Origin: an uncultured Planctomycetaceae bacterium
GTDB taxonomy: Bacteria; Planctomycetota; Planctomycetia; Pirellulales; UBA1268
DNA: 64,000 nucleotides
Direction of reading: 5' to 3'
Assembly: GCA_903885565.1 (NCBI GenBank)
Contig: CAISJI010000159.1
Span: 10,514-74,513 of the forward strand
Made by a program: the position numbers and the translations under genes. Positions 29,412 through 64,000 of this stretch are shown piece after piece (position 1 is the stretch's first letter; each line of letters opens with the position of its first letter). The notes beneath the pieces are model-generated. The model was not told the origin of the DNA. It saw only the letters and a program-made list of their open reading frames with translations, and searched no databases.

Positions 29412-29707
29412 GGCTTCTCCGCATCGGGACAGGTGCAGGTGAACTGACCGCAGCCGGGACACCCAGTGCCATATTTCTTGGCCACGGCCGCTTCGAGATC
29501 GACATTGACGACATTGGCGATGGTGGCCAGCCAGGCCAGCACATCGGCGAACTCCAGGGCGATCTCCTCGTGGGTGCCGCTGCGCAGGGAGGTGGCCAGT
29601 TCGCCGATCTCCTCGGTGAGCCACATGAAGGTGCCCTCGACCCCGCGGGTCGCGTCCTTGTCGTGGTACATGGCGCGGATCAGCGTCTGGAATTCATGGA
29701 GTGTCAT
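29408..29707 (-). CDS. MazG-like nucleotide pyrophosphohydrolase domain protein (99 aa) with a Cys-rich C-terminal tail
   Basis: MTLHEFQTLIRAMYHDKD...FMWLTEEIGELATSL...ALEFADVLAWLATIAN is the EExxE/D-type four-helix MazG pattern. The tail is KYGTGCPGCGQFTCTCP. ATG 29707; the TGA overlaps the next ATG (ATGA at 29408-29411). Confidence 0.7.
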   Translation of the reverse strand: MTLHEFQTLIRAMYHDKDATRGVEGTFMWLTEEIGELATSLRSGTHEEIALEFADVLAWLATIANVVNVDLEAAVAKKYGTGCPGCGQFTCTCPDAEKP

Positions 29708-32837: not shown

Positions 32838-32959
32838 TCCAAACCTCTGTCTTTCATGCCCCCTTGCGGGCCGGCACAGCCTCACCCGCGGCGCTCGAGC
32901 AGATGCCTGTCAGGCCTCGGCGACTGGCTCACGGCCCGGCCCGACTGCTCCCCACGCCA

Positions 32960-34582: not shown

Positions 34583-34784
34583 ACTGGCAACTCGGGAAGG
34601 GTGCGCGGAGGGACCAAAACAGATCCGGACCAAGCGCCAAACAAAACGGTCGGCGGCAGGGGCACCGCCCGCTCCAAGTCTACACAATCAGCGGAAAGGG
34701 CGGATATACTCATCTGTTTGCCCACCCGCTCCTCCGCTCCACATGCCCCGTGACTTGAGTGACGGGCCGCCCCGGAAGTCTGCC

Positions 34785-38574: not shown

Positions 38575-38679
38575 CGTGCTCCTCCAGAAGGGGAAGGGGA
38601 AAAGATCCGGCGAGAAACGCCTCCGCAGCGTCGGACTCACCGGGCGGCAGAATCTTCTAACCGCACCCTTGCCCTGCAA

Positions 38680-38695
38680 TGCAAGGGACGTGCCG
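38680..38695 (-). promoter_or_regulatory. Sigma-54 (RpoN) -24/-12 promoter upstream of amt: CGGCACGTCCCTTGCA
   Basis: The minus-strand read of 38695..38680 matches the consensus TGGCACG-N4-TTGCA at 15 of 16 positions, with the exact GG-N10-GC spacing. It lies ~105 nt upstream of ATG 38574. GGCAC half-sites cluster 130-195 nt further upstream (38823-38890). Confidence 0.55.
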
Positions 38696-39134
38696 AAACG
38701 CAGGAAACACTTCTCAACCGCCGCTTCTCCACCGCCGCCACCAGCTGATTCACCTATAAAAACAGGCCGATTTGGCCATGAATGAAAGCTCAGAAAAAAA
38801 TCGCGTTCGGGGGCTTTCCCGAGGCGTGCCCACTCCAATCACCTGCGGAGGCACAGTTTTGAGGCACGCGATTGCCCAGCAAAGCGGCACGCCCCCCGCC
38901 ACTGGGGAAACCATCTCCCACGGCGCAGCCTCCCGCTCAACCAGATCCGCTCCGCTACGCCTTCCAACTCATGTGAGCGCATGGGGGAGAACTTGAGCGA
39001 CACCTCGGCATCTCGGGTGGGAGAGGCGAAGGGGTCGGAGAACGCTTGAGGAGCGTCGGGCCGCTGCGGCCCAAGCGACGAAACTTTTGCCGCCCCGCAG
39101 CCGGCGCGCCATGGATGTCGACCGCGTTTGAGAG

Positions 39135-39935
39135 TCAGGTGGAAGTGGGCCTCACTCCGACGGTATTCCAGAGCCGGCTGCCGCTCAAGCAAACGGGGGC
39201 GTGGAGACTGACGAGCCTGCCGGTGGCGGGGTGCGGAAATTCCAGGCGGCTGGCATGGAGGCAGAGTCTGCCGGCGTCGCCGAATGCAGCCGGCGGGGCG
39301 TGCGGTGCCGGCGGATCAGCGCTGAACTGAGCGGCAGCAGCCGAACTGCTGTAGAGGTGATCACCCAGAATCGGAGCGCCCAGCCAGGCGAGGTGGGCCC
39401 GGAGCTGGTGCGATCGACCTGTCACCGGCTCCAATTCCACCAGCGACCAGCCGCCGGAAATGCTGCTGGACAGAGCGTCAGTGGCGGTCGCAATCACCTG
39501 CCAGCGGGAGATCGCCGGCCGCCCCAGAATCGGATCGATCCGCTGGCGGGGCGGCAACCCTGGATCGGCCGCCAGCGGCAGGTGGATCGTGCCGGCCGGC
39601 CGCGGCAGCCGGCCCTGCACCACCGCCAGATAGCGTTTGCGCACCTGCCGCCGCTCAAATGCCAGCCCCAGGGCTCCCCGGGCGGCCCGGGAGCGGGCCA
39701 GCACGAGCAGCCCGGAAGTATCGCGGTCGAGCCGATGCGCCGCCTCCAACAGCCCCCCTTCCTCCCCGGCGAATTCCGGCAGCGTGCGCAGAACCCGGGC
39801 CACATCGGGGGGATCGAGCGGCGTCCGCGCCGGCACGCTCGGCATGCCCGCTGGTTTTTCCACCACGACGATCTGGTCGTCGATCAGCACCACACGCAGG
39901 TGGCCAGCAATTATTGCGTGGCTGCTTTCTCTCAC
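39135..39935 (-). CDS. RluA-family pseudouridine synthase
   Basis: HRLDRDTSGLLVLARS (catalytic Asp motif) and LHASRLEFPHPATG are present. The GTG start at 39935 overlaps the upstream TGA (GTGA at 39932-39935). TGA 39135-39137. Confidence 0.85.
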   Translation of the reverse strand: MRESSHAIIAGHLRVVLIDDQIVVVEKPAGMPSVPARTPLDPPDVARVLRTLPEFAGEEGGLLEAAHRLDRDTSGLLVLARSRAARGALGLAFERRQVRKRYLAVVQGRLPRPAGTIHLPLAADPGLPPRQRIDPILGRPAISRWQVIATATDALSSSISGGWSLVELEPVTGRSHQLRAHLAWLGAPILGDHLYSSSAAAAQFSADPPAPHAPPAAFGDAGRLCLHASRLEFPHPATGRLVSLHAPVCLSGSRLWNTVGVRPTST

Positions 39936-42064
39936 AGCACGCCGAGCGACTCCACCCAGGAGCAGAGCGTTTCGGCTGGCACCTGCTCGAGCGCAGCAGG
40001 GGGCAACATGCCCACCGGATAGCCAGCCTCCTCCAACCGCCGGGAATCGAGCTCCAACCGGGGAACGGGCTGACCACCGCTGGTTCCAAAGAGCACCACG
40101 CGGCTGCGGCCCGGCTCAGCCGCTTCCACCGTGGCCTGCCGGGGCAGGCCAGCGTTGAACAGGGCCACTCCCCGCACGCCCGGCCCCAGAGCCTCCGCCG
40201 CCAGCCAAGCCATGGCGGCGCCGGCGCCACTCCCGGCGAAGGCAACTCGGGAAAGGTCTATTGGCCGCCGTTGCCGCAGCGAATCGAGGGCCCGCGCCAC
40301 GCCGGCGATATCTTCTCGGCCCCAGCGCTGCGGATCGGAGGGCTCAGGCAGGATCACTGCCACCCCATAGCGCGAGGCCGCCGCGGCCCACTGCGCCGAG
40401 GCAGCCCGCACCGCCTCGGTCTCAGCCGCCGCGCGAGCGGCCCCGGTGGCCGCCCCCTGCGGAGATCCAAAATAGACCAGCACCCCCAACGGCGTGCCCA
40501 GCGGCGACTCAGGCGCGGCTGCCGGCAGCACTGCCAGCGGCGGGTGAGCGATCTCCGGAGCGGGAAGTTTTTCCACCACTGCCTGCGCGGGATCGGCCTC
40601 GGAGACGGGCACCAATTCGGGCACCGTGGCAGGCGCCACCACGGTGGCCATCTCCAACTCAAGCGGGAGGCCGTCTCGGCGCACCGTCACCTGCACCACC
40701 GTCCCCGCCGCCAGCCCGCCGACAAAGCCGGCCAGAGCGCCGGCGTTTGAAACCTCCAGCCGCTCTCCACCGCCAGAGCTCCCCGCTTCCCCTGCGGCAG
40801 CGACTGTCGCCACCGCCTCGACGGAGTCACCGGCCACCAGCCCCGCCTGCGCGGCCGGCCCGGCGGGCCACACCCAGGCCACAGGTACACCCGGGGTCTC
40901 GCCCGCATTCTCGCCCTTTTTGTTCGCTGTGCGTGTGGGCACGATCCCCAGCACCGATCGCCGCCAAGGGGCGAGCGCGGCCACCAGTTCGACCCGCAGC
41001 GGCACGCGCACCTTCCCCCCGTCGGCAGAGCCGCGCTCCACCACCAGTTCGACGGAGTCGCCGGCATAGAGTGGGGCCAGCACATGCCGCAGTTCGGCCA
41101 CGCGGGCGATGCTCCGCCCTCCAGCCTCCACGATCGTGTCTCCAGCACGCAGCCCTGCCCGTGCCGCTGGCGAACCGGCCCGGCAGGTGGCCACCGTTGC
41201 TTTGGACGTGAAGGGATCGCGAGCAGAATAGCCAATCCCCAGAATTCCCGGGCTGAGCGTCTCCCCCTGCTGCAGCCGCGGCAGCACCCGCAGCAGATCT
41301 ACCAGGGGCACAGCGAAGCCGATCCCTGAGTCGTAGAGCTCAGTTCCCATCGTCATGCCAGCAGTGTCGGCAGGCACTGGGGCCAGGATGCCGATCACCC
41401 TCCCCTGAATGTCGATCAGCGGCCCGCCGTAGTTGGCAGGAGAGACAGAGGCATCGGTCTGCACAGCCTTGCCCCAGGCCCGATTCATCGCCGAGAGGAT
41501 CCCCACCGCCACACTCGGAGCCGAGCTGTTCCACGCCCGTCCCAAGGCGATCGTCCACTGTCCCACCCCCCACGACTCCCGCGGCGCGACCGCCAGGGAT
41601 GGCAGGGGCGCGGCAGCGGCGGGGACTTCGATCTGGAGCAGCACCAGTCCGCGGGCGAGATCCCGCCCCACGGCCCGGGCCACAACACGCGTGCCACCGG
41701 GTGTGCCTGGCAGCACCACGATCGCCTGCTTGGCATCCTTGGGGACGGCAAACGAGGTGGTCACCACCCAGCCCGCCGGATCAACAATCAGGCCGGACGA
41801 TGGCCCCGCTGCGGGAGCTGCCTCGGCCGGGCCGCCGATGCTCGCCTCCGAGACACCCGCCGCTTCGATCCGCACCACCGCCGCTGCCACCCGGTCGACC
41901 GCCGTGCGAAAGGCCTGCTCTTCGGCCGCCGCCACCGACCACTCCGCCGCGGGCTGCCCCACCGTCTGCCGAGCACTGGCCACAAACAATAGACAACAGG
42001 CAACGCAGCACATCTCGGCGATCCAGCGGCCCCTGCTCCAGATTCCCGGCAGGACGATTCTCAT
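39932..42064 (-). CDS. S1C (HtrA)-like pseudoprotease with all three triad positions substituted, two PDZ domains and a C-terminal alpha/beta-hydrolase-like domain
   Basis: ATG 42064 (ATGA overlap). Aligned by hand to the intact neighbour: His motif TNFHVV becomes TTSFAV, Asp motif GDVALIKL becomes RGLVLLQI, Ser motif GNSGGAL becomes ANYGGPL. PDZ-like blocks are SPAARAGLRAGDTIVEAGG and GPAAQAGLVAGDSVEAV. The C-terminus has VAFAGSGAGAAMAW (nucleophile-elbow-like). Confidence 0.7.
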   Translation of the reverse strand: MRIVLPGIWSRGRWIAEMCCVACCLLFVASARQTVGQPAAEWSVAAAEEQAFRTAVDRVAAAVVRIEAAGVSEASIGGPAEAAPAAGPSSGLIVDPAGWVVTTSFAVPKDAKQAIVVLPGTPGGTRVVARAVGRDLARGLVLLQIEVPAAAAPLPSLAVAPRESWGVGQWTIALGRAWNSSAPSVAVGILSAMNRAWGKAVQTDASVSPANYGGPLIDIQGRVIGILAPVPADTAGMTMGTELYDSGIGFAVPLVDLLRVLPRLQQGETLSPGILGIGYSARDPFTSKATVATCRAGSPAARAGLRAGDTIVEAGGRSIARVAELRHVLAPLYAGDSVELVVERGSADGGKVRVPLRVELVAALAPWRRSVLGIVPTRTANKKGENAGETPGVPVAWVWPAGPAAQAGLVAGDSVEAVATVAAAGEAGSSGGGERLEVSNAGALAGFVGGLAAGTVVQVTVRRDGLPLELEMATVVAPATVPELVPVSEADPAQAVVEKLPAPEIAHPPLAVLPAAAPESPLGTPLGVLVYFGSPQGAATGAARAAAETEAVRAASAQWAAAASRYGVAVILPEPSDPQRWGREDIAGVARALDSLRQRRPIDLSRVAFAGSGAGAAMAWLAAEALGPGVRGVALFNAGLPRQATVEAAEPGRSRVVLFGTSGGQPVPRLELDSRRLEEAGYPVGMLPPAALEQVPAETLCSWVESLGVL

Positions 42065-43128
42065 GGTTTCCTCGACAGTGCAGGACGCGGCCCCAATCCA
42101 CATTCCACAATGCTTCCCTCGCGCACCACGGTGAACTGCACCCGATCGCCGGTTGCCAGTTCCGCAAGAATGTGCTGCACTCCGGTCCGCGATGAGACCG
42201 AGCGACCGTTGACCGCCACCACCAGATCATCGGTGCGCAGGCCTGCTGCGGCAGCTGCGGAGCCGCTCCGCACCGACTCGACAAACGGCGGGGTTCTGTC
42301 GAGCAGATCGGGCACGAACACCACTCCCAACAGCTGCGGATCAAAGCGCATCGCCACCGAATCAAGCGCCGCTTCAGCCGTGGGTGTCGGACTGGTCCCC
42401 TGCCCCGCGAGCACGCTGCGGTAGCCCTGCTCAACCTCATCCACCGGCAACGCGTAGTTGAGCCAGATGCCGCTGGTGGTCGCCCGCAATTCCTTCCCCA
42501 GCATGCCGAGCAGTCGCCCGCGCCAATCGACGACGGCACCGCCAGCCGACCCAGGATTGTTGGTGGTGCAGTCGAGGATATAGACATCTCCGCGATAGGG
42601 TGCCTCGTGAGCCCCCCGCCGCGCATCCAGCGGCACCACTCCCGACACCACTCCATGCTGCACGCTCACCCGTTCATCCCCCACGGCGACTCCGAAGAGA
42701 TTCGAGAGGGCGAACACGCGCGTGCCCGGCGCCACACGGGGAAGCTGCTCCCAGGAAAAGGCCGGCAGATCCTCCCCCTGAATCGAGAGCACCGCCAGTT
42801 CCCGCAGCGGATCGCAGCCGAGGAGGGTGGCCGAATAGCGGCGGCCATCATCCAGCACGCAGTCGATCTCGTCGGAGTCCAGCACCGTGCTCTGCACCGT
42901 CACCACATGCCCTGCGGCAGAGACGAGAATGCCGGTCTGATAGGCCTCCAGGCCCCGCACTCCCCCGGCCCCATAGAGCTTCACCACGCAGCGGGCACTC
43001 CCGGCGATCGTCTGCTCAGGACTCACCGGCGGCGCGGCGCTGACGGCAGCCCCCACCACCAGCCAGCCCAGCAGCAGGCCGCAGCAGATGCCGCTCACAC
43101 TGCCCGATCGTTTTCCTGTCTGCATCAT
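42061..43128 (-). CDS. S1C (HtrA)-like protein with a degenerate triad (Ser/Glu/Ala at the His/Asp/Ser positions) plus one PDZ domain
   Basis: ATG 43128 (MMQTGKRS..., ATGA overlap), signal/anchor ICCGLLLGWLVVGAAVSA. TVQSTV stands at the His motif, RELAVLSI at the Asp motif, and NPGSAGGAV at the Ser motif (the Ser is shifted one residue N-terminal). PDZ block: AAAAGLRTDDLVVAVNG. Confidence 0.7.
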   Translation of the reverse strand: MMQTGKRSGSVSGICCGLLLGWLVVGAAVSAAPPVSPEQTIAGSARCVVKLYGAGGVRGLEAYQTGILVSAAGHVVTVQSTVLDSDEIDCVLDDGRRYSATLLGCDPLRELAVLSIQGEDLPAFSWEQLPRVAPGTRVFALSNLFGVAVGDERVSVQHGVVSGVVPLDARRGAHEAPYRGDVYILDCTTNNPGSAGGAVVDWRGRLLGMLGKELRATTSGIWLNYALPVDEVEQGYRSVLAGQGTSPTPTAEAALDSVAMRFDPQLLGVVFVPDLLDRTPPFVESVRSGSAAAAAGLRTDDLVVAVNGRSVSSRTGVQHILAELATGDRVQFTVVREGSIVECGLGPRPALSRKP

Positions 43129-45032
43129 GTCTCTCCTGGAGCTTCCACAGGCCGCGGGACCTCCCCGGCTGAATCGGCAGGGCTGTCGGCCTGCGGCGCC
43201 GCTGCCTGCACACTGGCCGCTTCGATGTGGAACACACCAAAGAGTCTGTCGCCGTGACGGGCCTCGATCCGTGCCGGCCATCCCGCCGGGATGCCGGAGA
43301 TCGGCAGCGCTTGCGCGAAGGTGAGTTCGCAGGGATCGGCATCGGGTGCGGTCCACAGATCGATCGCTGCCACAGCACCGCTGGGCGTTACGGAAACCCT
43401 CGTCTCCACCGCCGCTACGGCGGTCTCCAGGACATCGATCAACACCGGTTCCGCGCCGCTGATCAGGGCCGCCGGGTCGAGCGGTGCGGTGCCCCAGTAG
43501 CTGGTGCGTCCCAGAGCTGTGGGTCCCTCCAGCACCAGCCGGCGCCACACGATCAGCGCCGCCAGCATTCCGCCGCTGCCGGGCGGACTCGGATTGGCGT
43601 CGAGATCACCGCTGGCATCCACCGAGGTGGTGCCGGTGGGCAGATCGATGGTGGCGCGGCTATCGGCCAATTCGATACGAAATGGCTCGCCGCTGCCCAG
43701 GTGGCCCGCCATCACCCAGGTGCCGCGCCCAGGATCGGCGTGCCCGGCAGCCACACTCCGGGCCACGCGCGACAACTCCACCGTGTTGAAGTGGTAGTTG
43801 GTGAAGCCGGGACGGGCTTCGTACACCTCCTTCACGGCCGCGGAGAGCTGGTTGGGGGCGGGATGGGCAGGCGGTTCGGGTTTCTCCTCCGCTGGCTGGG
43901 GCGCTGCGGGGGGGCCGGGGCGTGGACGACGGGTCTGCTTGGAATTTTCCCCCGCCACGATAGAAGCCAGTTCGGCGGCAGAATGCACCCCCGCCAGCCG
44001 CACCAGAATCTCATAGCGGCGTCCCTGACGGCGATAGACCAACGGCACCCGCCACCCTGCAGGCAGCGTGCCCAGAACATTTTTCAGCGCGTTGACGGTG
44101 CGCACCGTGCGGCCGGCAATCGACACGATCTCGTCGTCGTAACGCAAACCACGCCGGTAGGCATCGGAGGAGTCCAGAATGTCAGACACCACCACCCGCC
44201 CATCCTCGGCTGTCGCCGCGGTCGCACCGAGCGTGGCGTGATCGACCAGCCTTCCCCCCTTGAGGCAGCCGAGGAAGTGCCGCAGCTGGTTGGCAGAAAT
44301 GGCATAGCCCACTCCCACATTCACCCGCCCCCGCTTCTCAAACGAAGCCCGGCCGTTGACGCCGATGATGCGTCCCTGGGCATCGAAGAGTGCTCCGCCG
44401 GAATTCCCCGGATTGATGGCGGCATCCACCTGCAGGCAATCGGCATATTCCAGGATCGTGCCGGCAGGAAACTGGTAGCGATGAACCCCCGACACGATGC
44501 CGGCGCTGATCGAGGGATGGAAGTCGGTGGCCAGCAGGAACGGATTGCCCGCCGCAAAACAGAAATCCCCCACCTCCACGGTGTCGCTGTCGGCCAGTGC
44601 GGCATAGGGGAAATCATCCCGCCCCAGCAATTTGATCAGCGCCACATCGCCGGTCGGATCGAGCCCCACAAGCACCGCTTCATACTGCCGGCCGTCCGCC
44701 AGACCGCACTGCATTGCCACGCCCGCCGGCTGCACCACATGAAAGTTTGTCAGGGCGTAGCCATCCGCACTGATCAGCACGCCGGAACCCCCGCCCGCCT
44801 CACCGGCGAAGATGGCCACCGCCGCCTGCGACGCCCGCGCGATCACTTCAATCCGCTGTTGCTGCGCCGCGAGCACCTCCGGCGCCACGTCCGCTCCGTT
44901 GGCCGGCGGCCCAGCCGGCTCGGCAAACGCCGCCGAGATCACGAGCAACCAGCCGGAAATGCATGCCGGCGCACACCAAAGCAGGCGGAGAACACCCCTC
45001 GGACGGGATCGTTGGGCGATTGTTTGTTTCAT
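43125..45032 (-). CDS. HtrA/DegP-family serine protease (intact triad) with a PDZ domain and a ~280-aa C-terminal extension
   Basis: ATG 45032 (ATGA overlap). Signal peptide LLWCAPACISGWLLVISAAFA. GGSGVLISADGYALTNFHVV (His), GDVALIKL (Asp), NPGNSGGALFDAQGRIIGVNG (Ser). PDZ block: GRVVVSDILDSSDAYRRGLRYDDEIVSIAG. Confidence 0.8.
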   Translation of the reverse strand: MKQTIAQRSRPRGVLRLLWCAPACISGWLLVISAAFAEPAGPPANGADVAPEVLAAQQQRIEVIARASQAAVAIFAGEAGGGSGVLISADGYALTNFHVVQPAGVAMQCGLADGRQYEAVLVGLDPTGDVALIKLLGRDDFPYAALADSDTVEVGDFCFAAGNPFLLATDFHPSISAGIVSGVHRYQFPAGTILEYADCLQVDAAINPGNSGGALFDAQGRIIGVNGRASFEKRGRVNVGVGYAISANQLRHFLGCLKGGRLVDHATLGATAATAEDGRVVVSDILDSSDAYRRGLRYDDEIVSIAGRTVRTVNALKNVLGTLPAGWRVPLVYRRQGRRYEILVRLAGVHSAAELASIVAGENSKQTRRPRPGPPAAPQPAEEKPEPPAHPAPNQLSAAVKEVYEARPGFTNYHFNTVELSRVARSVAAGHADPGRGTWVMAGHLGSGEPFRIELADSRATIDLPTGTTSVDASGDLDANPSPPGSGGMLAALIVWRRLVLEGPTALGRTSYWGTAPLDPAALISGAEPVLIDVLETAVAAVETRVSVTPSGAVAAIDLWTAPDADPCELTFAQALPISGIPAGWPARIEARHGDRLFGVFHIEAASVQAAAPQADSPADSAGEVPRPVEAPGET

Positions 45033-46357
45033 TTTTCGATGACCGGTGTGGTGAATCGCACGGGGCTGCCCAGATCTCCGCTTGTGCCGTAATCGACCGT
45101 CACCGTCAGACGCCTGGCGCCAGCAATTTCCAACTCAATCGGCAGTCCCTCCCCCACCCCATCGATGGGAAACACACCGGCATCGATCTCGCGTCGGAAG
45201 GCCTCGGAGTCGTCGACTGAGATTGTCACCAGCGTCTTCCCCGCCGCCATCCGCCCCGCCGCCGGGGCCACCACGGTGCGGAATCGCCGACTGTCGGCCG
45301 GCACGCGCCACACTGCCACGGTGCGGGGCCGCACCACGAGCCCCTCCCGGGGAAATTCGCCGGCAGCCACCACCGGCCGGGGCGCAAAATAGGGGGCAAA
45401 CCCCGGCAACGCGGCGAGGGAACCAAAGTAGGGCTCCACCTCCAGCCGTTCCGGCGGCAGACCAGTCAGCGCCAGCGTGCGATCGGCGGCAAAGTCGATC
45501 CTGGCCAGCAGGGGCGCCGGCACGCGCACAACGTCATCCAGCACCAAGCCGGTCGGCGTCCAAACCACTTTTCCAGCCCGCAGACTCCCGCCGTCAACAT
45601 CGACCACGATTCCCCGTGGAGCCTGGTTGGTCGCCTGAGCACGCAGCCACTGAAGCCCGATGATCTTTGCTCGCTTGACGGCGATCGTCTCATCATCGAG
45701 CAGAACGGTGACGGTTTCGGGAGACACAGCCGTTATCGCGCACTCCACAAACTCATGGGCCGCGGGAGTACCGACCACCAGGAGATCGCTCTCGGTCGCC
45801 TCCGGAACCGCCGTCTGCCAGCCCGATCCTCCGCTCCAGTCGAGGGTGTGGAGCCGCTCCGCCGGAACCTCGATTGGCCCATCAGGCGTAATCAAGAGGG
45901 CCTGCTTGCCATCCCAGGAAAAATCGTCTGCCTCAAGCGTTGATCCATCAATCCATGTCGACCGCAGCGCGGCAGGCTTGGCTGGCAGGACAGCCGCGCC
46001 ACTGCGTGTCACGACGCGCACCTGATCCAGTGGCAGCACCAGATCCTGTCCGGCAGAGGCAAGAGCCACCCCGTCGGCACCGATTCGCGCAAGCGGGCCC
46101 GAGAGCATGGTGCCATCGGTGCGTTCCACGCGAAAGGTTCCCGCCCCCCCCGCTTCACTTACCACAGCCACCGGTTCGGCAGCGGCCGCCCGCCCAGCCG
46201 AGCCAATCACCAAGAAGGCAAGCACGAAGCCGCTCAGCACAAAAAAGTCTGGCACACAGAGGAGCCGTCCCGCCCGCCGGCCGCGCCAGCAGCGGCCCAA
46301 CGAAAACATCCACTCCGGCGCAGAGAGCCACCGGTCAACCGAGCGAAAGAAGTGCAT
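45029..46357 (-). CDS. Membrane-anchored hypothetical protein (442 aa) with a C-terminal NPCBM-like beta-sandwich (tentative)
   Basis: ATG 46357. TM segment FFVLSGFVLAFLVIGSAG. The C-terminal RRFRTVVAPAAG...LVTISVDDSEAF...PIELEIAGARRLTVTVDYGTSGDLGSPVRFTTPVIEK resembles the NPCBM/NEW2 pattern as I recall it. Confidence 0.5.
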   Translation of the reverse strand: MHFFRSVDRWLSAPEWMFSLGRCWRGRRAGRLLCVPDFFVLSGFVLAFLVIGSAGRAAAAEPVAVVSEAGGAGTFRVERTDGTMLSGPLARIGADGVALASAGQDLVLPLDQVRVVTRSGAAVLPAKPAALRSTWIDGSTLEADDFSWDGKQALLITPDGPIEVPAERLHTLDWSGGSGWQTAVPEATESDLLVVGTPAAHEFVECAITAVSPETVTVLLDDETIAVKRAKIIGLQWLRAQATNQAPRGIVVDVDGGSLRAGKVVWTPTGLVLDDVVRVPAPLLARIDFAADRTLALTGLPPERLEVEPYFGSLAALPGFAPYFAPRPVVAAGEFPREGLVVRPRTVAVWRVPADSRRFRTVVAPAAGRMAAGKTLVTISVDDSEAFRREIDAGVFPIDGVGEGLPIELEIAGARRLTVTVDYGTSGDLGSPVRFTTPVIEK

Positions 46358-46377
46358 GGAGGAATTTTCACCGACAG

Positions 46378-47610
46378 TTAGGGGGTCTGTTCACCGGTCG
46401 CCAGACGCTTGAAGTATTGCTCAATCGCTTCCCGGTAGTGGGCCGGATATTCCCGGCCGATCTGCTGGAGCGCCTCTTCGCGCTGATGAGGAGGCAGGTT
46501 GCCCCAGCCGCCGGAATCGCCAATGTCGCGCGGCGTGACATCTCCCGGCCCCTTGCCGTCGGCGAGGCGACTGTCGTCCATCGGCTTGCCGTTGCCCCCC
46601 TTGCCCGTGCCCGCACCCCCGGCGCTCCCCGCCTGTGACTCCTGCTGCTTTTCGATGGCAGCGATCATTTTGTCGAGAGATTCGATCACGCCATCCTGTA
46701 CCTGGCGCGTGCCGGGGCCAGCTCGCCCCAGCCCCAGGCGTCTGGTGATGTCGCGCATGCGGCGTGCAATGTGATCAAGCGATTCATCCTCCAGCGACTT
46801 GATATCGGCCCGCAGCAACCGGGCCACCTGCTCATAGCGCACCGGAATCTCACCCGTGCGTTCCAACAGCCGTTCGAGCGATTCCAGCGCCAGATCACCT
46901 TTCAGCAGCCAGTGCTGGCAGGCGGCACGATGGAAGAAGAGCGACGCAGGATCGATGGCGGTGGCCGGATCGAGGTCGCCGATGATCGCCAGCCCCTCGT
47001 CATAGCGTTCCAGCCGCACCCACTCCCTCCCCAGCCAGAGTTTCACAGCGTCCCGTTCCCATGGATCGGTGGCTGGATCGGCCCACCAGAGCGTCGCTGC
47101 GGCCGATCCTTCCGCAGACTCAGCCGCCGCGGCCGCCAGCACACCCACCACGCGCGGGTCGGCGACGGCCAGCGCGGCGACCACCGCATCGAGCAGATCG
47201 CTGCCGGGCGCAGCGGAGCGTTCGTCCCATACTTCAGCGGCCCGCTGCCGATCGGCAGCAGACACTGGCGTTCGGGCAATCCATTCGGCTACCTGCCGTC
47301 CCACCGCTTCGCGCGTGGGGATTGACCATGTCGGCTGCCGGGCCAGTTCGCTCTCCGCAGCCTCCGCGCCAGAGGCCACGCCCGCCGCAGCGGGCTGATC
47401 GGCATCTCCTGCCAGCGGCATCGCCGGCACTTCCACTCCGGCGTTGCAGAAAGCCACCGCCAGCAGGCTGTGAATCAGGTGCAACAGCAGCCGATGCGCT
47501 GCCCGTCGACCGTGGCAATCCTCGGCGGTCCCACCGTTTACGAAAGTGGAAAAAGTGCCGGGATCACTTTTTCCACGGGCAGCTAATTCTTCGGCACCGC
47601 GAATCGGCAT
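46378..47610 (-). CDS. Hypothetical exported protein (~410 aa); C-terminus EYPAHYREAIEQYFKRL
   Basis: The start is uncertain. ATG 47610 has GAGG 10 nt upstream; the track start at 47709 is GTG and the intervening codons have low GC3. A hydrophobic LLLHLIHSLLAVAFCNA segment is present. TAA 46378-46380. Confidence 0.45.
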   Translation of the reverse strand: MPIRGAEELAARGKSDPGTFSTFVNGGTAEDCHGRRAAHRLLLHLIHSLLAVAFCNAGVEVPAMPLAGDADQPAAAGVASGAEAAESELARQPTWSIPTREAVGRQVAEWIARTPVSAADRQRAAEVWDERSAAPGSDLLDAVVAALAVADPRVVGVLAAAAAESAEGSAAATLWWADPATDPWERDAVKLWLGREWVRLERYDEGLAIIGDLDPATAIDPASLFFHRAACQHWLLKGDLALESLERLLERTGEIPVRYEQVARLLRADIKSLEDESLDHIARRMRDITRRLGLGRAGPGTRQVQDGVIESLDKMIAAIEKQQESQAGSAGGAGTGKGGNGKPMDDSRLADGKGPGDVTPRDIGDSGGWGNLPPHQREEALQQIGREYPAHYREAIEQYFKRLATGEQTP

Positions 47611-47767
47611 GGAGGCGAACCTCTGCAGAGTGACCAGACACAATAGCCACTCGCTTTTCGCATGCGCATGGCCCCAATCCATCATACCCGCGAGCCTGTC
47701 GCCGGGCACAGCGTTCGCCCCCGCCGACCACTTTTGGCCCGGGGACTGGCGAGAGCGAAGCCCAGGA

Positions 47768-54395: not shown

Positions 54396-54428
54396 GGAAG
54401 TGGACAGCGTCCGGGGGGCCGGGGGAGA

Positions 54429-56729: not shown

Positions 56730-57621
56730 GGCGGAAATCCTCGGCTACACGGCCATGCTGGAGCGGCGGGACAAAAATTGAACCAGCGCCGCATCGACCG
56801 GCTCGCCGGTGCGGATCAGGGAATAGTCGCAGGAGGCGGCCGCACACCGCCGCCGGGCCTCGGCGAGGAAGGCCTCCAAGGCTGCCAGATATCCTGCCCG
56901 CAGCGCCCGGGGATTGCAGGCGAGGTGATCGGGGATTTCCAGCCCTTCAAACCGGGTGGGGCCATCGAACGGAAAGGTGAGTTCGTCGTCATCCATCACG
57001 TGCAGGAGCACGAGATCGTGGCCGCGTTTCCGCAGCAGTTGCATCCCCTGAAACATTCCCTCCCGATCGCCGAGCAGATCGGAGATGAGAACCACCAACC
57101 CGCGCCGCGGGAGCGTCTCCGAGAGCGTCTTGAGCACCGGCAGAAAGGCTGTGGCCCGCCCCTTGCTCGCCTCTCCCCGCACCGTTTCGAGCACCTCGAC
57201 AACGCTCGCCAGCTGCGAGCGCTTCGTGCGGGCCGGCACCGCCGCACGCACCTGGCTGTCAAATACTGCGCAGCCGGCAGCATCACCGTGCGACAGCGCC
57301 AGCCAAGCGAGGCTCGCCGCCAGGGTGGCGGCATATTCATACTTCGACAGGCTTCCCGACTTGTAGTCCATGCTCGAAGAGGCATCGACCACCAGCGCCA
57401 GCCGCAGGCTGGTCTCCTCCTCAAATTCCTTGACGTACAGCCTGTCCTGCCGGGCCCACACCTTCCAGTCGACCCGGCGCAGATCATCCCCGCGGACATA
57501 CTCCCGGTGTTGGAGAAATTCCACCGACTGCCCCTTGTAGGGGCTCTTGTGCAATCCGGCGAGCACCCCTTCCACGACAGCCCTGGCACGCAGCTCGAGC
57601 CGCGTGATGCGGGCAATCGCC

Positions 57622-58668
<1,047 letters not shown>

Positions 58669-58718
58669 AAAAGCTCCGGGTGGGGCGGACGGACGACGGC
58701 GGCGGACAGGTTTGCCGC

Positions 58719-59807
58719 TCAGCGTTGATAAATCGGCAGCGTGCCCTTGTCCAACTGCAAAATTGTGAGGTTTGACGCAGTCGTGTACACCGGGCCGATG
58801 TATCCCTGCGGCCAAAACAGCCCCTCGCGATCCTCTTGGGCCTCGCTGATGAGCCGTTTGTCGATCTGGTCGCGGTAGCCCGACCACTTCCGGCCCCCCT
58901 CCCGGTACATCACCTGGGCGTAGTAGAAGTGGGCGTAATGCCAGTGGCCGAAACCGTTGTTGGAGATGTTGCCGAGGTGCTTTTCGGCATAGTCGAGCAT
59001 CCGCGGCACATGCGTGTCATCATATTCGCCGGCATTGAAGAGGCAGGCGATCGCGGCGGCAGAAATCGCCGGCCGCCCTCCCCCGCCCTTGGAGCTGTAC
59101 TGCACGCCGCCGTCGGGCATCGTGCACTTGTGGATGTAGGCGATGGCCTTGTCGATGATTTCGCGCGGCACCGGGATGCCGGCATTCCGGCAGCCGCGCA
59201 GCCCCTGCACCTGCGTGATGGTGGTCGAACCCTCGTCGAAATTGTTGCCGTCCTTGGCGCTGACATAGCCCCATCCGCCATCGGCGGTCTGGGCCCGCCC
59301 GGAAAACTCCACCGCCTTCACCAGCACCCGTAGCAGTTCCTCGCGGCGCCGTTCATCCTCCTCTTCGCCGATCACCTGCGAGAGGAAGAGCATGGAAAAG
59401 CCGTGGCCGTAGGTGTAGCGATCGTCTCCCTTGGGATCCCCGATCAGCCCGTTGGCACGCGACCGGCTGACGAGATAATCGACCGCCTGGCGGATCGGCT
59501 CGGCGTAGCGCCCCTGGGTGGTGGTCGACCCTTCCATGAGCATCGCCGTGCCGGCCAGCGCCGTCATCGCCGTGGGATAGCGCCCCTCATTGGCTGCCCA
59601 ACTTCCGCGCCGCGACTGTTTCTGCACCAGCCAATCGAGCCCCCGCGTCACCACCCGATCGAGCTTCTCTTCGGACACTTCCGCCACGGCCTGCCCCGCC
59701 CCCCCGCAGCAGGCCAGTCCAAGCGCCACCAGCCACACCCCCACCTGGAGCATGGCAGCCGGGCGACCGAGCGCAGCATGGGCTGGCGCGGGGAAATTTT
59801 TAGGCAT
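58719..59807 (-). CDS. Secreted prenyltransferase/squalene-oxidase-repeat (alpha/alpha-toroid) protein
   Basis: ATG 59807. Signal [21 protein letters not shown]. Repeated toroid motifs include [14 protein letters not shown]-like, [15 protein letters not shown] and [18 protein letters not shown]. Confidence 0.7.
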
Positions 59808-59841
59808 GAAAAACCGCCTCTGGGAGCCGATGAGAATGAGA

Positions 59842-62800
59842 CTAAAACGGCAGTGAAAACTGCAGCGTTTTTTCCAACCAGTATTCCAACTCAGACAGAA
59901 TATCCCGCGTGACCGGCAGCCGGCCGGCAGCTTGAAACGGCGGGCTCGGCGCCATCGGGCGCCCCGTGAACTCGAGCACGATATCAGACACCTCGCTGCC
60001 ACCGCGCCGCAGCGTAATCGTATGCGCCCCGGGATCGCCTGTCATATCGCAGCCGAAGAGCATGTGCGGTTGGGCATTGATCTTGTCGTCGAGACAAACG
60101 GCATGTCCGGTCCGTTTGTCGAGCGCCAGCACGCTCAGGCGGGGCCGATCGCCGCCCCGCGCGGGCTGAATCTGGCGGGCAAAGAGCAGCACCGGCAGTT
60201 CTGCCGCCTGCGGCACGTGGAGGCAGTGGCGCAGCAGCGTGGCCGGCACAGGCCAGAGCATGTCGCCTGAGTCGCGTCCCACCGCCCAGAGCGAACCGCT
60301 TACCGGCTGGTTGTCGCGCGACGATGCCTGTTGCGGCAGCGTGGTGATCATGCCGACTTTCTCCAGCATTTTCCGCTCCTCCGGGGTCTCCTGCCGACCC
60401 ACAAAAACCAGAAATCGGTCCTGCCAGGGAATCACCCGCAGCTGCTCGAGCCCCTTGGGCATCTCCGGCAGCACCACCTGAAACCGCACAGCCTGCGCCT
60501 CCAGATCGACCACTGTGAATGCCCCCGCGGGATCGACAACCGCAAGATGGCCGGGGCCAGCGGGCGCCACGCGCGAGAGTGGACCGTAGGTTCCCAGCGG
60601 TGTCTTGGTGAGCGTGACCGGATCGAACAGTTCCAACTGAACATTCTGCGGCGTGGCGGCACCGGGCTCCCCGGGCGTTGCCACCGGCGGTACGATCGCC
60701 ACCATGCGTCGGCCGCTGGTGAGAACGCGCAGTTCGCGGCGCGGCACATCGCAGGTGCGCACCAGCCGCCCATCGGCCATAGAAACCACAACGGCCCCCC
60801 GGCCATCAGCCGGACAGACACACACATAGTCGTCGTCGGCGATCACCTCGCCCGAGGCGGGCAGACGCTGACGTTCCCACCGCACAGCACCGCTCACAGG
60901 ATCGTGCAATGCGAGCGAAGAATGCACCAGCACCGGCACACCCGTGGCCCGCAGCTGCCCCCCCTGCACCGCCATGATCGGCACCATCTCCTCTGTCCCT
61001 CCCTGAACCCCAATCCGCATTCCCAGCGGCACATTTCCGATTCGCCCGGCCCGCCCGGCGGCGAAGCGTCCCATTCCCGCCGCGGGCATCTCCATCGCCC
61101 CGCCGGCAGCGTCAGAGAGCATCCAGAGCCGCCGATTGCGTCCGCCCCCCTGACCGGTCAGCTCGAAGGCGGCCAGCAGCGGGCCCGACCGCACCACCAC
61201 CACGCGTCCCACTGCCGAGGCCTCGGTCGCCATCGGCTGGAACATCGGCACCAATCCTTCCAGGCGGCCTCCCCCTTCAAATCCAAACGGATCGCCGATG
61301 CGTCGACCGTAGCCATCGGTGGCCACCAATCCCGGCTGCTGCATGTCGTAGGCCAACCGCAGGCCCGGGAAGAATGAGGTGCCGTGATCATCCACGGCGA
61401 TCGACATCATCCGCGCCTGCCGCACCGCCTCTTCCGAAGCCCGCACGTCACCGCTCCGCTGTTCCACCACCTGGCCAAACGGCCACGCCGCTGCCGTTTC
61501 GCGCCACGCCGCCGGGTCAACCGCCGCCACCGAACCCTCGGCCGCTGCCAGCTGGGCAAACTCGCGACGCAGCTCCAGATCGCGCGCCGCATCGCTGCCC
61601 GGCTCGGTCGCCGCCAGCAGCGCAGCGGAGGCCTCGATGAGCCCTTGCCGCGCCGCCCCTGCCGCCGGATGCCAGGCAAATCGCTGCAGAAAGGCGTCCC
61701 ACCGCACCACCTGCGCCGCCCGGTCGGAGAGAGCTTGAGTCGCCGCGAGTGACTGCTCCACCGCACGGTCGATTTCTGCCCGTAGCCCCGCCGGAGCAGA
61801 GGTCCACAGCGTCAGCAACCGCCCCTGCATCCAGCGGTCTTCCGTCACGGCCACCAGCGGATCGGAGGGATCTTCCCAGAGGGGTGCCGGGGACGGCGCC
61901 ACAGCGGCAGGCATCTGGTCGAAGTGGTCGAGCTGGTGGCGGCAGACCTCCCACGCCTCAGGGAAGGCGCCGGCTTTCATGGAGCCATCCACGGCCACTC
62001 GCAGCATCGCCTTGCGAGTTGGATCGACCCCCTCCGACCAGACCAACGGGCCAGCCGGTTGGGGCGTGAAAAAAACCTCCCGCCACAGTGGCGCAGCGGC
62101 GGCGAAATCGCGTTGCATCCCGCAGAGCATCGCCTGAGCCATCACATCCGCCGGCACGCTCGCCGGATCGGCGGCATGTGCTGCCCGGATATGCGCCAGG
62201 CCATTGGCCACGTCACCCCGATCGAGTTCCATCTGCCCCAGCCAGAAGAGGCCCCAGGCATCGGGCGCCACGCGCTTTGCTGTTTCGATGCGTTCCTTGA
62301 GGCTATCGGTCTGGTGAAACACATCGAGCGACTCCACTCCCTGCGACACCACCTCCCCTCGATAGGCCAGCAGATTGCCCGCCACAGCGCCCCCCCGGGC
62401 AGCCGACCGCCCGGCGATCAAGCCACTCCGCAGATCGACTTCGATCACCTCGGGGGTGTCCAGCGGCAGGAACAACCTCTCGGCGGTGACAATGCCGCGT
62501 CCGCTCGGCCGGGCACCTTCCAGATCGAGCGGTTGGTCCCATTGGCTGCGGCCATTCTCGAGACTGAGGCTCTCAACACTCGAGCGTCCCACCACCACCA
62601 CACTCCCCTCCCGCACTCCGGCGACATAGAGAGATTCTTTGCGCGGCACCTTCCAGGCCACAGCACCAGAACGCAGATCGAGGCAGTGCAGTTCATCTGA
62701 TTCGCGTGGCGTGAGAATGGCCCGGCCACCGGCGAGGATCACGGCGGAATCCCGCCAACCGCTGGCCGGCTGGGCAGCCCCGCCGAGCAACTGGCCATTG

Positions 62801-64000
62801 ATAATGATCCTGCCCCCCATCCCTCCCCCAAGCATGTTGCCGCGCCGCACCAGCACGCCATTGGGAAGCAGCACAGCATCGCTCTCGCCCGGCTGGGGAT
62901 AGTTGTAAGCCCATAGCAGCGTTCGGGTTGCCAGATCGACCGACACCACAGTTCCGGCGCCTGTGGGGCAGACGAGCACCCCGTCGGCAAACGAAGGGGA
63001 GAGTCCGGCCAAGCGGCGTCTCTGGCCATCGCGGTTGTCGATCGCCCGTTCTTCGTCAAGTTCGGCCAAGGGCTGCGTCCAGAGCAGGGCCCCGGTGGCG
63101 GCGGTCAAGACATCCAACCGCACCTCTCCCCGTTCCTCCACCAACACAAACAGTTGATCGCCGATCGGCAGCGGGGCACCGAGAAACCAGCCCCCCCCCG
63201 TTACCGGCTCGGGAGCCCGCCCCCCCTCGGCTGGCTTTGCCGGCGCATCGGTCGCGGGTGCAGGCAACCGCCAGCGGAGCGTTCCTTTCTCGGCAACGTC
63301 GTAAGCGGAGAGCACGTTGCTGGTTCGGCCCGCTGCGGGCAACCCGCGGAGGCCGCGCCGGATGCCGTTGCCGCCATCGGCCAGCGAACCGGACAATTCC
63401 GCCGGATCGCTCTCCACGGCAAACACGAGCCTCCCATCGCTGGAGAGCATGCCGCTGGTGGCGTCATCGAACACACCGCGCAGCGCTCCCGCGCCGCTCG
63501 GTTCGCGGCCTTCCATATCGTCGCCATTCCCCTCCAGCGCATCGACAAACGATGCCGCCGCTCCTCCCGTCTGGAGCCAGACGCGCTTGCCCGTTTCAAA
63601 GTCGATCGCCAGCAGGCCCATCGGGGAATGCACCAGAATCGATCCTCCCACCGCCAGCGGACTGCCAGCTGGCAAGAGCGGCATCTCCCGATCCGCAAAC
63701 TGCTTCCGCCGCTTTTCCAGCAACCGCGCCTCCTCGGGATGCCGGGTGAGCGGCACGCGGTAGCGGGGCACCAGGAGCGGCCGTGTTGATGCGACCAAGG
63801 CGTTGCGGGCCGCATCGCCACGCGGCAGCAGCCATTCCCCATTGCGGCGGCCTTGCGCGCCTGCCGGCTCCCCGGCGATCCCTGCCAGCCAGGCGGCGGC
63901 CCCACCCGGAGCATAGGAAAGGCCAACATCCTTGCCCCCGAGCCGCACCTGTCCGCCCCGGCCGGCACGCACCCGATCGAGCGCTGCCATCGCGGCCTCG
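59842..64000 (-). CDS. Giant PQQ-like beta-propeller repeat protein (over 1380 aa); the N-terminus runs off the window
   Basis: The frame stays open to nt 64000, and there is no signal peptide at the first in-window Met (63990). Many propeller blade motifs are present (GKRVWLQ, GALLWTQ, RTLLWAY, GAVAWKV, GRSQWDQ, GAVRWER, GDMLWPV). TAG 59842-59844. Confidence 0.7.
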   Translation of the reverse strand, partial: EAAMAALDRVRAGRGGQVRLGGKDVGLSYAPGGAAAWLAGIAGEPAGAQGRRNGEWLLPRGDAARNALVASTRPLLVPRYRVPLTRHPEEARLLEKRRKQFADREMPLLPAGSPLAVGGSILVHSPMGLLAIDFETGKRVWLQTGGAAASFVDALEGNGDDMEGREPSGAGALRGVFDDATSGMLSSDGRLVFAVESDPAELSGSLADGGNGIRRGLRGLPAAGRTSNVLSAYDVAEKGTLRWRLPAPATDAPAKPAEGGRAPEPVTGGGWFLGAPLPIGDQLFVLVEERGEVRLDVLTAATGALLWTQPLAELDEERAIDNRDGQRRRLAGLSPSFADGVLVCPTGAGTVVSVDLATRTLLWAYNYPQPGESDAVLLPNGVLVRRGNMLGGGMGGRIIINGQLLGGAAQPASGWRDSAVILAGGRAILTPRESDELHCLDLRSGAVAWKVPRKESLYVAGVREGSVVVVGRSSVESLSLENGRSQWDQPLDLEGARPSGRGIVTAERLFLPLDTPEVIEVDLRSGLIAGRSAARGGAVAGNLLAYRGEVVSQGVESLDVFHQTDSLKERIETAKRVAPDAWGLFWLGQMELDRGDVANGLAHIRAAHAADPASVPADVMAQAMLCGMQRDFAAAAPLWREVFFTPQPAGPLVWSEGVDPTRKAMLRVAVDGSMKAGAFPEAWEVCRHQLDHFDQMPAAVAPSPAPLWEDPSDPLVAVTEDRWMQGRLLTLWTSAPAGLRAEIDRAVEQSLAATQALSDRAAQVVRWDAFLQRFAWHPAAGAARQGLIEASAALLAATEPGSDAARDLELRREFAQLAAAEGSVAAVDPAAWRETAAAWPFGQVVEQRSGDVRASEEAVRQARMMSIAVDDHGTSFFPGLRLAYDMQQPGLVATDGYGRRIGDPFGFEGGGRLEGLVPMFQPMATEASAVGRVVVVRSGPLLAAFELTGQGGGRNRRLWMLSDAAGGAMEMPAAGMGRFAAGRAGRIGNVPLGMRIGVQGGTEEMVPIMAVQGGQLRATGVPVLVHSSLALHDPVSGAVRWERQRLPASGEVIADDDYVCVCPADGRGAVVVSMADGRLVRTCDVPRRELRVLTSGRRMVAIVPPVATPGEPGAATPQNVQLELFDPVTLTKTPLGTYGPLSRVAPAGPGHLAVVDPAGAFTVVDLEAQAVRFQVVLPEMPKGLEQLRVIPWQDRFLVFVGRQETPEERKMLEKVGMITTLPQQASSRDNQPVSGSLWAVGRDSGDMLWPVPATLLRHCLHVPQAAELPVLLFARQIQPARGGDRPRLSVLALDKRTGHAVCLDDKINAQPHMLFGCDMTGDPGAHTITLRRGGSEVSDIVLEFTGRPMAPSPPFQAAGRLPVTRDILSELEYWLEKTLQFSLPF

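Follow-up and report, generated by a model that had tools for sequence, protein, structure and literature searches.

Why should the core of a Bat-like operon be surrounded, in an uncultured planctomycete, by a long run of genes for exported and membrane-anchored proteins, and do those genes belong with it? MoxR-DUF58-VWA ("Bat-like") modules occur in many bacterial phyla, and we know of no role assigned to them outside the methanol-dehydrogenase case. The DNA considered here (the window) is a stretch of 64,000 nt from an uncultured Planctomycetaceae bacterium (assembly GCA_903885565.1, contig CAISJI010000159.1, positions 10,514-74,513 of the forward strand), with a G+C content of about 66 %. 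From position 39135 to the window end, every long open reading frame (ORF) that matches a domain or a homolog is on the minus strand, and a first-pass annotation had described these ORFs as a co-directional run of 14 genes built on a MoxR-DUF58-VWA core with large extensions. We find that the extension genes are conserved together with the core, and we hold it likely that the cluster is one functional module. We propose, with a probability that we put at roughly 0.5, that it is a periplasmic VWA module, anchored in the inner membrane and powered by MoxR/DUF58, which assembles exported partners encoded in the same cluster or loads them with metal.

Conservation of the gene neighbourhood

A collection of genomes was scanned with the central protein of the cluster, encoded immediately after the two membrane VWA genes, and 80 loci were recovered at 45-62 % identity. 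To judge by their labels, all of them come from metagenome-assembled genomes (MAGs), nearly all labelled Planctomycetota and many from lakes or other freshwater. Gene order and strand are the same as in the window in every one of these 80 clade loci; 21 span the whole interval from the propeller gene to the third HtrA gene, and 17 of those 21 also have rluA. Other Pirellulales (Pirellulaceae and another MAG) keep 11-13 of the genes, with a central protein that is 28-31 % identical to that of the window. Two Pirellulaceae MAGs, L085 and L086, carry the genes for MoxR, DUF58, BatA_N, VWA, the central protein, the coiled-coil protein, the C-terminal-motif protein, NPCBM and three HtrA proteins, and L085 also has an upstream propeller gene of 1593 aa. 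The Thermoguttaceae MAG L088 has propeller, toroid and the series from MoxR through the coiled-coil gene, at which point the contig ends, while L093, the central protein of which groups with Pirellulales-labelled matches, has all 13 genes. On a more distant contig, L089, a 721-aa exported PQQ_2 protein comes immediately ahead of MoxR, DUF58, BatA_N, VWA and a fused giant protein.

The neighbourhood extends to a second class. For the Phycisphaerae we drew on the complete genome CP054187.1 and on a 90 %-identity DUF58 cluster in which the isolate RAS2 is represented by a protein. Their operon reads MoxR, DUF58, BatA_N/VWA, VWA/GATase1-like, fused giant, a 254-aa C-terminal-motif protein, toroid and NPCBM, with the toroid gene, which is upstream of moxR in the window, placed downstream. 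In the Phycisphaerae no propeller gene precedes moxR, and the genes seen after NPCBM include no HtrA. A metagenome scan made with the toroid alone returned 536 relatives. Upstream sequence was complete over 10 kb at 17 loci, of which 13 carry the DUF4175-like fused giant and the VWA genes there. A metagenome scan with the protein P0422 gave no matches.

Conserved synteny beyond MoxR-DUF58-VWA, on which the first-pass annotation had staked its reading, is therefore what the comparison returns: 13 genes are colinear across the Pirellulales, and eight families recur in the Phycisphaerae. Those eight families constitute a phylum-level module. The extension genes are not accidental neighbours, since they remain linked in other Pirellulales families even where the central protein has fallen to 28 % identity. 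The expectation that the flanking genes would co-occur with MoxR/DUF58 is borne out for the toroid and for the 45029-51906 ORFs, the Phycisphaerae included; the propeller and the HtrA triplet were seen with the core in Pirellulales-type loci only. No published description of this extended architecture turned up in the literature on MoxR/DUF58/BatA, planctomycetes and aerotolerance, in agreement with what the first-pass annotation had supposed.

It could be argued that MoxR-DUF58-VWA is the whole unit, and that the propeller, toroid, NPCBM, HtrA and RluA genes stand beside it because genomic inertia keeps them there in a lineage that rearranges slowly. This is indeed true of RluA: its identity as a pseudouridine synthase stands (PF00849), its assumed membership in the unit does not, and with no rluA after the HtrA genes in L085, L086 or L093 we consider it probably a clade-specific neighbour and not part of the system. 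The same argument may also invoke two loci in which the cluster is interrupted or split (L077 and L076, described below), the Phycisphaerae version without propeller and HtrA triplet, and the fact that HtrA proteases are generic periplasmic quality-control enzymes. As an account of the rest of the cluster, however, we find it improbable. The toroid and NPCBM genes shift position between classes and yet stay linked, which would be unexpected under inertia; a search that starts from the toroid leads back to the cluster; three of the extension genes are tied to one another by fusions; and the HtrA triplet keeps the same pattern of dead and active members across Pirellulales in which the central protein has drifted to about 28 % identity.

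The core and its membrane-anchored VWA paralogs

The features of the cluster are collected in Table 1. Its core belongs to the MoxR-DUF58-BatA/VWA class, and the MoxR, DUF58 and BatA_N assignments of the first-pass annotation are all backed by Pfam or NCBIfam matches. MoxR has intact Walker A (GVPGLAKT) and Walker B (VLADE) motifs, qualifies as MoxR proper and is 75-90 % identical within the clade of the window. The DUF58 gene follows moxR directly with a 35-nt overlap, and its product has a MIDAS-type DASSS motif at residue 91. Neither a transmembrane (TM) segment nor a signal peptide is predicted in MoxR or DUF58, and RluA likewise has neither, so the statement that almost all products carry a signal peptide or TM anchors does not extend to these three.

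Table 1. Features of the cluster in the window, in gene order
Feature	Position	Strand	Support
Giant exported PQQ-repeat (BamB-like) beta-propeller protein	59842-64000	-	PQQ_2 2.3e-17; 5' end past window
Exported single-domain alpha/alpha-toroid protein, squalene-cyclase/prenyltransferase/TED-like fold	58719-59807	-	SQHop_cyclase_C 4.6e-9; N-terminal hydrophobic segment
MoxR-type AAA+ ATPase, predicted cytoplasmic	57622-58668	-	AAA_3 (PF07726) 2.2e-62; AAA_lid_2 8.4e-17
DUF58 protein, predicted cytoplasmic, VWA-like MoxR partner	56745-57656	-	DUF58 2.8e-48; VWA_2 5.7e-6
BatA_N double-TM, VWA(MIDAS), beta-sandwich, GATase1-like, C-terminal TM protein	54429-56729	-	BatA 4.2e-12; TIGR02226 3.5e-16
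BatA_N paralog: two TM, VWA(MIDAS), beta-sandwich, GATase1-like, C-terminal TM	51864-54395	-	hhalign and PDB profile
DUF4175-like membrane protein, N-terminal piece (central protein): 3 TM, predicted cytoplasmic helical insert, three predicted periplasmic beta-sandwich domains, helical bundle	49621-51906	-	AlphaFold2 (AF2) and family Pfam
Exported acidic coiled-coil/low-complexity protein, middle piece of DUF4175-like unit	47768-49624	-	N-terminal hydrophobic segment; 17 % D+E
Exported helical, weakly TPR-like protein, G/Q-rich linker, C-terminal motif	46378-47709	-	alignment A2; start uncertain 47709-47421
Membrane-anchored or exported protein, SH3-like barrels and C-terminal NPCBM/NEW2, putative carbohydrate-binding	45029-46357	-	ortholog Pfam and synteny
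HtrA-like serine protease 1, C-terminal extension, signal-like N-terminus	43125-45032	-	Trypsin_2 9e-31; PDZ_2
HtrA-like pseudoprotease 2	42061-43128	-	Trypsin_2 1.6e-18; PDZ
HtrA-like pseudoprotease 3, two PDZ, C-terminal alpha/beta-hydrolase-like domain	39932-42064	-	Trypsin_2 7e-20; PDZ
RluA-family pseudouridine synthase, translationally coupled neighbour	39135-39935	-	PseudoU_synth_2 (PF00849) 2.8e-28

The BatA_N protein has a DDSYS MIDAS motif at residue 100, VWA_2 being matched by its orthologs, and its family profile reaches a GATase1-like structure in the PDB (3rht, 2e-5). TM segments are predicted at residues 8-26, 58-76 and 727-745. The following gene had been called VWA, which fails as a direct Pfam match (E 3.8e-4, sub-threshold) and holds by family profile and motif: the profile finds the VWA structures 4cn8 (5e-12) and 4rck (3e-6), STM1381 (3soz, 5e-4) and BatB (3ibs, 6e-3), and the protein has a DSSAS motif of the DxSxS MIDAS type at residue 109. 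Aligned by hhalign, its family matches the BatA_N family over 605 columns (98.6 %, E 1e-15), and the two proteins are paralogs, 766 and 843 aa long, each with an N-terminal TM hairpin and a C-terminal TM segment. MIDAS motifs are thus intact in all three VWA-type proteins, DUF58 and the membrane pair. The loop between helices 1 and 2 of the BatA_N protein is strongly basic, which points to a periplasmic location of the large domains; hydropathy and charge distribution likewise suggest that the VWA(MIDAS) and GATase1-like domains would be periplasmic.

The closest comparison for this core is the Bat operon of Bacteroides and its spirochaete and Bacteroidota homologs (moxR, DUF58, batA-E), which shares the succession of an AAA_3-type MoxR, DUF58, and BatA_N double-TM and VWA/MIDAS membrane proteins, and has in BatA/BatB a similar pair of VWA paralogs. 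One could accordingly take the cluster for an aerotolerance or oxidative-stress system in the Bat sense, a defence of the cell against oxygen or reactive oxygen species. Such a role would agree with the common gene content, with the profile of the second VWA protein reaching both BatB and 4jdu, an "aerotolerance-related membrane protein", and with the stress sensitivity of Riemerella moxR mutants (PMC11834572). We nevertheless think it quite improbable. Deletion of all bat genes in Leptospira biflexa had no oxidative-stress, growth or morphology phenotype (PMC3557215), and because of this the label "aerotolerance" carries no mechanistic weight. Furthermore, no redox domain was detected in the cluster, none of the 14 ORFs has a BatD-family Pfam match at E<=0.01, and no clear BatC/BatE-type TPR/SH3 protein was detected, TPR signals in the 46378-47709 family being weak. 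The relatives are lake and freshwater MAGs, for which a special need for aerotolerance would not be obvious. The cluster also differs from the Bat operon in its much larger VWA proteins, with their GATase1-like domains and second, C-terminal anchor, and in the addition of the DUF4175-like, toroid and NPCBM proteins and, in the Pirellulales, of the propeller and the HtrA triplet.

A second known association of these domains is found in the MoxR-vWA ternary conflict systems of Kaur, Burroughs, Iyer and Aravind 2020 (PMC7159879), in which MoxR, vWA, beta-propeller and trypsin-like peptidases share one neighbourhood, as they do here. The superficial match is reinforced by a secondary Pfam match of our MoxR to bpMoxR (PF20030, 5e-11), and the cluster might on these grounds be read as a nucleoside triphosphate-dependent conflict or immunity system of MoxR-vWA(-beta-propeller) type with peptidase effectors. 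We disfavour this reading and regard it as highly improbable. AAA_3 fits the MoxR protein far better (2e-62); no VMAP/iSTAND third component was found by Pfam or PADLOC, and PADLOC gave no defence-system match in the cluster. DUF58 is present in the cluster, and the word is missing from PMC7159879. The non-ATPase components, DUF58 aside, carry TM segments or signal peptides, in keeping with an envelope location, and the peptidases are HtrA-type proteins with PDZ domains, two of the three being inactive. Order and architecture stay constant over 80+ loci without the effector variability and displacement that define conflict systems, and this colinearity across lineages is consistent with vertical inheritance.

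A DUF4175-like protein divided among three genes

Four ORFs of the cluster, the three described in this section and the 45029-46357 ORF, have no direct Pfam or NCBIfam match and were annotated through orthologs and profiles. The central protein belongs to a family of 7872 representatives (50 % clustering, E<=1e-3), and all 19 representatives examined have a cluster of N-terminal hydrophobic segments, usually three. It had been described as a DUF4175-like double-TM protein. The double-TM part gives way to three predicted TM helices, and the family label is reasonable because 4 of 40 diverse relatives match DUF4175 (PF13779, best 1.2e-8); the window protein itself has no Pfam match, and the family member P0202 reaches 20.4 bits, where the cut-off is 27.3. 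The relationship to DUF4175, as judged from such profile matches, would be a remote one. DUF4175 proteins follow MoxR-DUF58-BatA_N genes in many Proteobacteria. The window protein resembles them in its N-terminal TM helices, large extracytoplasmic part, low-complexity or coiled-coil region and place after the BatA_N/VWA genes, and differs in that the unit is split over three genes. In an AlphaFold2 model of 49621-51816 built from 69 sequences (pLDDT 92.2), a helical TM region is predicted to be followed by three Ig-like beta-sandwich domains, and the C-terminal part to form a long bundle of helices.

The start of the acidic coiled-coil gene overlaps the stop of the central gene by 4 nt. The third piece ends in an invariant motif, WGxLPPxxREEALQQIGREFPxHYREAIEQYFKRLA, and shows weak TPR signals (SRP72 TPR, E 0.02; TPR_6 in 3 of 20 members at 0.009). 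DUF4175 was sought in this C-terminal-motif family and not found, a PDB profile search with the family gave nothing significant, and a single-sequence AF2 model of 46378-47421 was uninformative (pLDDT 52.6).

It is from natural fusions that the three genes can be understood. P0169, P0202 and P0379 each join the central protein, with nothing in between, to the coiled-coil protein, and the Phycisphaerae have fused proteins of 1182-1194 aa in the same place in the operon, between the VWA paralog and the 254-aa gene. A fused Tundrisphaera protein of 1637 aa carries the terminal motif at its own C-terminus, and related motifs end P0423 and P0424. By virtue of these fusions, 49621-51906, 47768-49624 and 46378-47709 behave as pieces of one giant protein. 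Where it is encoded separately, the middle piece carries an export signal of its own, and one would therefore expect the first piece to have its C-terminal domains in the periplasm.

The Tundrisphaera protein deserves a separate remark. It comes from Tundrisphaera sp. TA3 (L087:10001-14914; CP195100.1) and combines a diverged DUF4175-like N-terminal part with a WGxLPP...YxxIIExYF motif. As P0425 it was considered as a clustered ortholog and rejected, being a diverged giant that stands alone.

Exported partners

The gene at the upstream end had been described as a propeller protein of more than 1380 aa. Its identity is upheld by PQQ_2, and its length is larger: no stop lies ahead of the first ATG, nor upstream of 63990, so the ORF continues beyond base 64000, and the ortholog in a 97 %-identical relative, L083, has 1624 aa. 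Homologs upstream of MoxR measure 1593-1662 aa in L085, L088 and L093, and 721 aa with a signal peptide in L089. The match of the propeller to PF01011 is partial and weak (E 0.0011), and the protein includes a TPR region.

The secreted alpha/alpha-toroid call is supported by the SQHop_cyclase_C-type match. Across 17 orthologs, SQHop_cyclase_C is matched by 16, Prenyltrans by 10 and TED_complement by 2, and the profile finds squalene-hopene cyclase chains in the PDB at about 1e-11. With MoxR, the toroid is the most conserved protein of the cluster, at 71-94 % identity (median 85 %) in the clade of the window. A CxEQ thioester motif was sought in it and is absent, for which reason an alpha2-macroglobulin/TED-like reading was dropped.

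For the 45029-46357 ORF, NPCBM/NEW2 (PF08305) is matched by 6 of 21 aligned orthologs, the best at 7.4e-24, the window protein itself being unmatched; syntenic orthologs are annotated NPCBM in L085, L086 and L090-L093. A PDB profile search with this family returned nothing significant.

Three HtrA proteins, one active site

The "HtrA triplet" of the first-pass annotation was confirmed, with Trypsin_2 and PDZ in each of the three proteins. Only HtrA1 has an intact catalytic triad, H98/D129/S211 (GNSGG), which is kept in 41 of 41 orthologs. HtrA2 orthologs have replaced His by Ser (35/35), Asp by Glu (31/35) and Ser by Ala, Pro or Gln (35/35), and HtrA3 orthologs His by Phe (36/37), Asp by Gly (29/37) and Ser by Tyr (36/37), with the loss conserved as far as the Pirellulaceae. 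To judge by these residues, HtrA2 and HtrA3 are pseudoproteases. The last 240 or so residues of HtrA3 (39935-40660) give weak profile matches to esterases (7clz, 3e-4; 8daj, 4e-4), and the window copy has a nucleophile-elbow-like A-G-S-G-A string, the serine of which is not conserved among orthologs.

The trimer is the basic unit of HtrA proteases. Three translationally coupled paralogs with a single live active site suggest a heteromeric HtrA complex, possibly a heterotrimer. The thylakoid Deg5/Deg8 proteins offer a precedent for mixed Deg complexes (PMC3640471), and are alike in comprising several co-occurring paralogs; the cluster is distinguished by having three that are translationally coupled, two of which have lost all three catalytic residues.

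A possible function for the module

What might such a module do? In methylotrophs, mxaRSACKL serves the insertion of Ca2+ into the PQQ methanol dehydrogenase, a periplasmic client, and a MoxR/VWA complex specialised for metal-cofactor insertion has been proposed (PMC12276312). There, as here, MoxR (MxaR), a DUF58-type VWA protein (MxaS) and membrane or periplasmic VWA proteins adjoin an exported PQQ-repeat propeller. This adjacency is seen in the window, L085, L088, L089 and L093, and is not universal; the likeness is one of gene content and adjacency. The two systems part company in the propeller, which in the cluster is about 1600 aa long and BamB-like with a TPR region, in the equivalents of mxaJ/G/I, none of which was seen in the cluster, and in the Phycisphaerae, where the propeller is dispensable.

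Taking MxaR/MxaS/MxaA/C/K/L, which insert Ca2+ into a periplasmic propeller enzyme, as a model, we envisage MoxR and DUF58 in the cytoplasm; in the inner membrane, the two VWA paralogs, anchored at both ends, and the DUF4175-like protein that is split into three genes; and, as exported partners, the toroid and the lectin-like NPCBM protein, joined in the Pirellulales only by the giant PQQ-repeat propeller and the HtrA set. ATP hydrolysis by MoxR, together with DUF58, would act on the BatA_N and DUF4175-like proteins through their conserved cytoplasmic loops. The periplasmic proteins encoded in the cluster would as a result be loaded, matured or assembled in a metal-dependent (MIDAS) process. 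The HtrA proteins, probably a hetero-oligomer, would be dedicated to processing or quality control of that assembly. A specific maturation or metal-loading mechanism of this kind, drawn as it is by analogy, is a tentative proposal, to which we give somewhat less than even odds. The conserved gene content, the fusions, the paralogy of the VWA proteins and the loss of catalytic residues are observations; topology, a physical complex and the identity of the clients are proposals of the model.

An explanation that lies close to this one is that the cluster builds a static envelope scaffold, in which the VWA/MIDAS proteins, the DUF4175-like protein and the glycan-binding NPCBM and toroid proteins would bridge the inner membrane to the wall or outer layers, with MoxR/DUF58 needed once for assembly and no separate clients. 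The modelled central protein, with its long helical bundle and tandem beta-sandwich domains, would suit such a structure, as would an acidic coiled-coil partner that other lineages fuse to it, VWA paralogs anchored at each end, a putative carbohydrate-binding NPCBM domain, weak Pec_lyase and TED matches in the toroid family, and an architecture that is constant across the phylum. The fold matches are generic, however, and the one MoxR-DUF58-VWA set to have been dissected experimentally serves cofactor insertion (PMC12276312). The scaffold and the maturation of clients overlap and fit the same data, which sequence alone does not separate; we judge the scaffold unlikely, while taking it more seriously than the other alternatives.

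Several observations weigh against the assembly or metal-loading of exported partners by a single, fixed module. At L077 (4109-9822), 5.8 kb with four opposite-strand genes splits the VWA paralog from the central protein, and at L076 (1-9773) no MoxR half occurs in the 10 kb that precede the DUF4175-like half. A single operon is hence not obligatory, and the cluster can break at the junction between the VWA paralog and the DUF4175-like gene. The Tundrisphaera giant adjoins three DUF1559/N_methyl genes and not MoxR. By Pfam the propeller is BamB-like, and not a recognisable quinoprotein dehydrogenase; as it is missing upstream of MoxR in L086 and in the Phycisphaerae, it cannot be the sole client. 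Foldseek searches with the model of 49621-51816 returned generic Ig/FnIII/macroglobulin-domain matches with TM-scores <=0.24 and no specific functional analogue. The periplasmic orientation of the VWA domains, finally, is a prediction from hydropathy, the positive-inside rule and the logic of the fusions. The genes that intervene at L077 encode a CLC channel, DUF808, an Lgt-like protein and a radical SAM protein.

A bolder version of the assembly and loading module may also be sketched, although we regard it as rather doubtful. It would be an undescribed, phylum-wide trans-inner-membrane machine, in which a MoxR/DUF58 motor sets the MIDAS state of the paired periplasmic VWA proteins from the cytoplasmic side, in an integrin-like "inside-out" manner, and the VWA proteins in turn build or load a glycan-binding assembly of DUF4175-like stalk, toroid and NPCBM protein. 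In the Pirellulales this machine would be serviced by an obligate HtrA heterotrimer, one member active and two dead, and linked to the giant propeller.

Gene calls, spacing and the rest of the window

Every one of the 14 minus-strand ORFs proposed at 39135-64000 was recovered at its coordinates, and all 13 spacers were reproduced (34, 50, -35, 15, 33, -43, -4, 58-157, 20, -4, -4, -4 and -4 nt), five of the junctions in the cluster being 4-nt overlaps of start and stop. Starts were picked from the start codon, the N-terminal sequence and the gene calls of the 97 %-identical relative, which gave ATG 58668 for moxR, 59807 for the toroid gene, 43128 for htrA2 and 42064 for htrA3. The co-directional run is real; its end at 39135 is not, for a minus-strand ammonium transporter gene (36994-38838) extends it, followed by a leuA-type gene on the plus strand. 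This transporter gene (Ammonium_transp, 1e-113) lies directly downstream of rluA. Its longest ORF is extended at the N-terminus to an implausible length, and the end of rluA is overlapped by an ORF of 117 aa at 38839-39192.

Promoter and terminator scans of the cluster found nothing convincing internally, under a sigma-70 model that may not fit the Planctomycetota. A weak 5-bp hairpin with a T-rich tail (59850-59863) lies just upstream of the propeller stop, before the 34-nt spacer, and is too weak for a terminator. On L082, a near-identical metagenome contig, the BatA_N gene (5179-7478) is called as two pieces of 574 and 206 aa, and the first HtrA gene (16978-18833) as 472 and 150 aa; these split calls may reflect frameshifts, assembly errors or strain-level pseudogenes.

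Elsewhere in the window, 29745-34687 (minus strand) encodes an RND efflux pair, an HlyD-type membrane-fusion protein followed by an AcrB-family pump (ACR_tran, 1e-258), apparently unrelated to the cluster. At 97-3024 (plus strand), a single large ORF combines three domains: an AMP-binding one that resembles fatty-acyl-AMP ligases, a phosphopantetheine carrier and an aminotransferase of class I/II. Synthases of the aminolipid or sphingoid-base type typically have this architecture, and the window start may truncate the ORF at its 5' end. Three long predicted ORFs on the minus strand, at 12961-16380 (1139 aa), 27117-29624 (835 aa) and 3802-6135 (777 aa), lack a Pfam match at the thresholds used and are candidate genes only.

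Implications

Our analysis gives a module of the MoxR-DUF58-VWA class a fixed and evolutionarily supported list of partners: the DUF4175-like protein, in split or fused form, the toroid and the NPCBM protein, with the propeller and the HtrA set as additions in the Pirellulales. The triplet of one active and two dead HtrA proteins makes, in addition, a clean candidate for a heteromeric HtrA complex in bacteria. Since RAS2, a cultured isolate of the Phycisphaerae, has a protein in the DUF58 cluster, the target of the module can be addressed experimentally. Should the cluster indeed prove to be a trans-inner-membrane machine, it would define, for the first time, a set of clients and a mechanism for the Bat/MoxR-DUF58 class.

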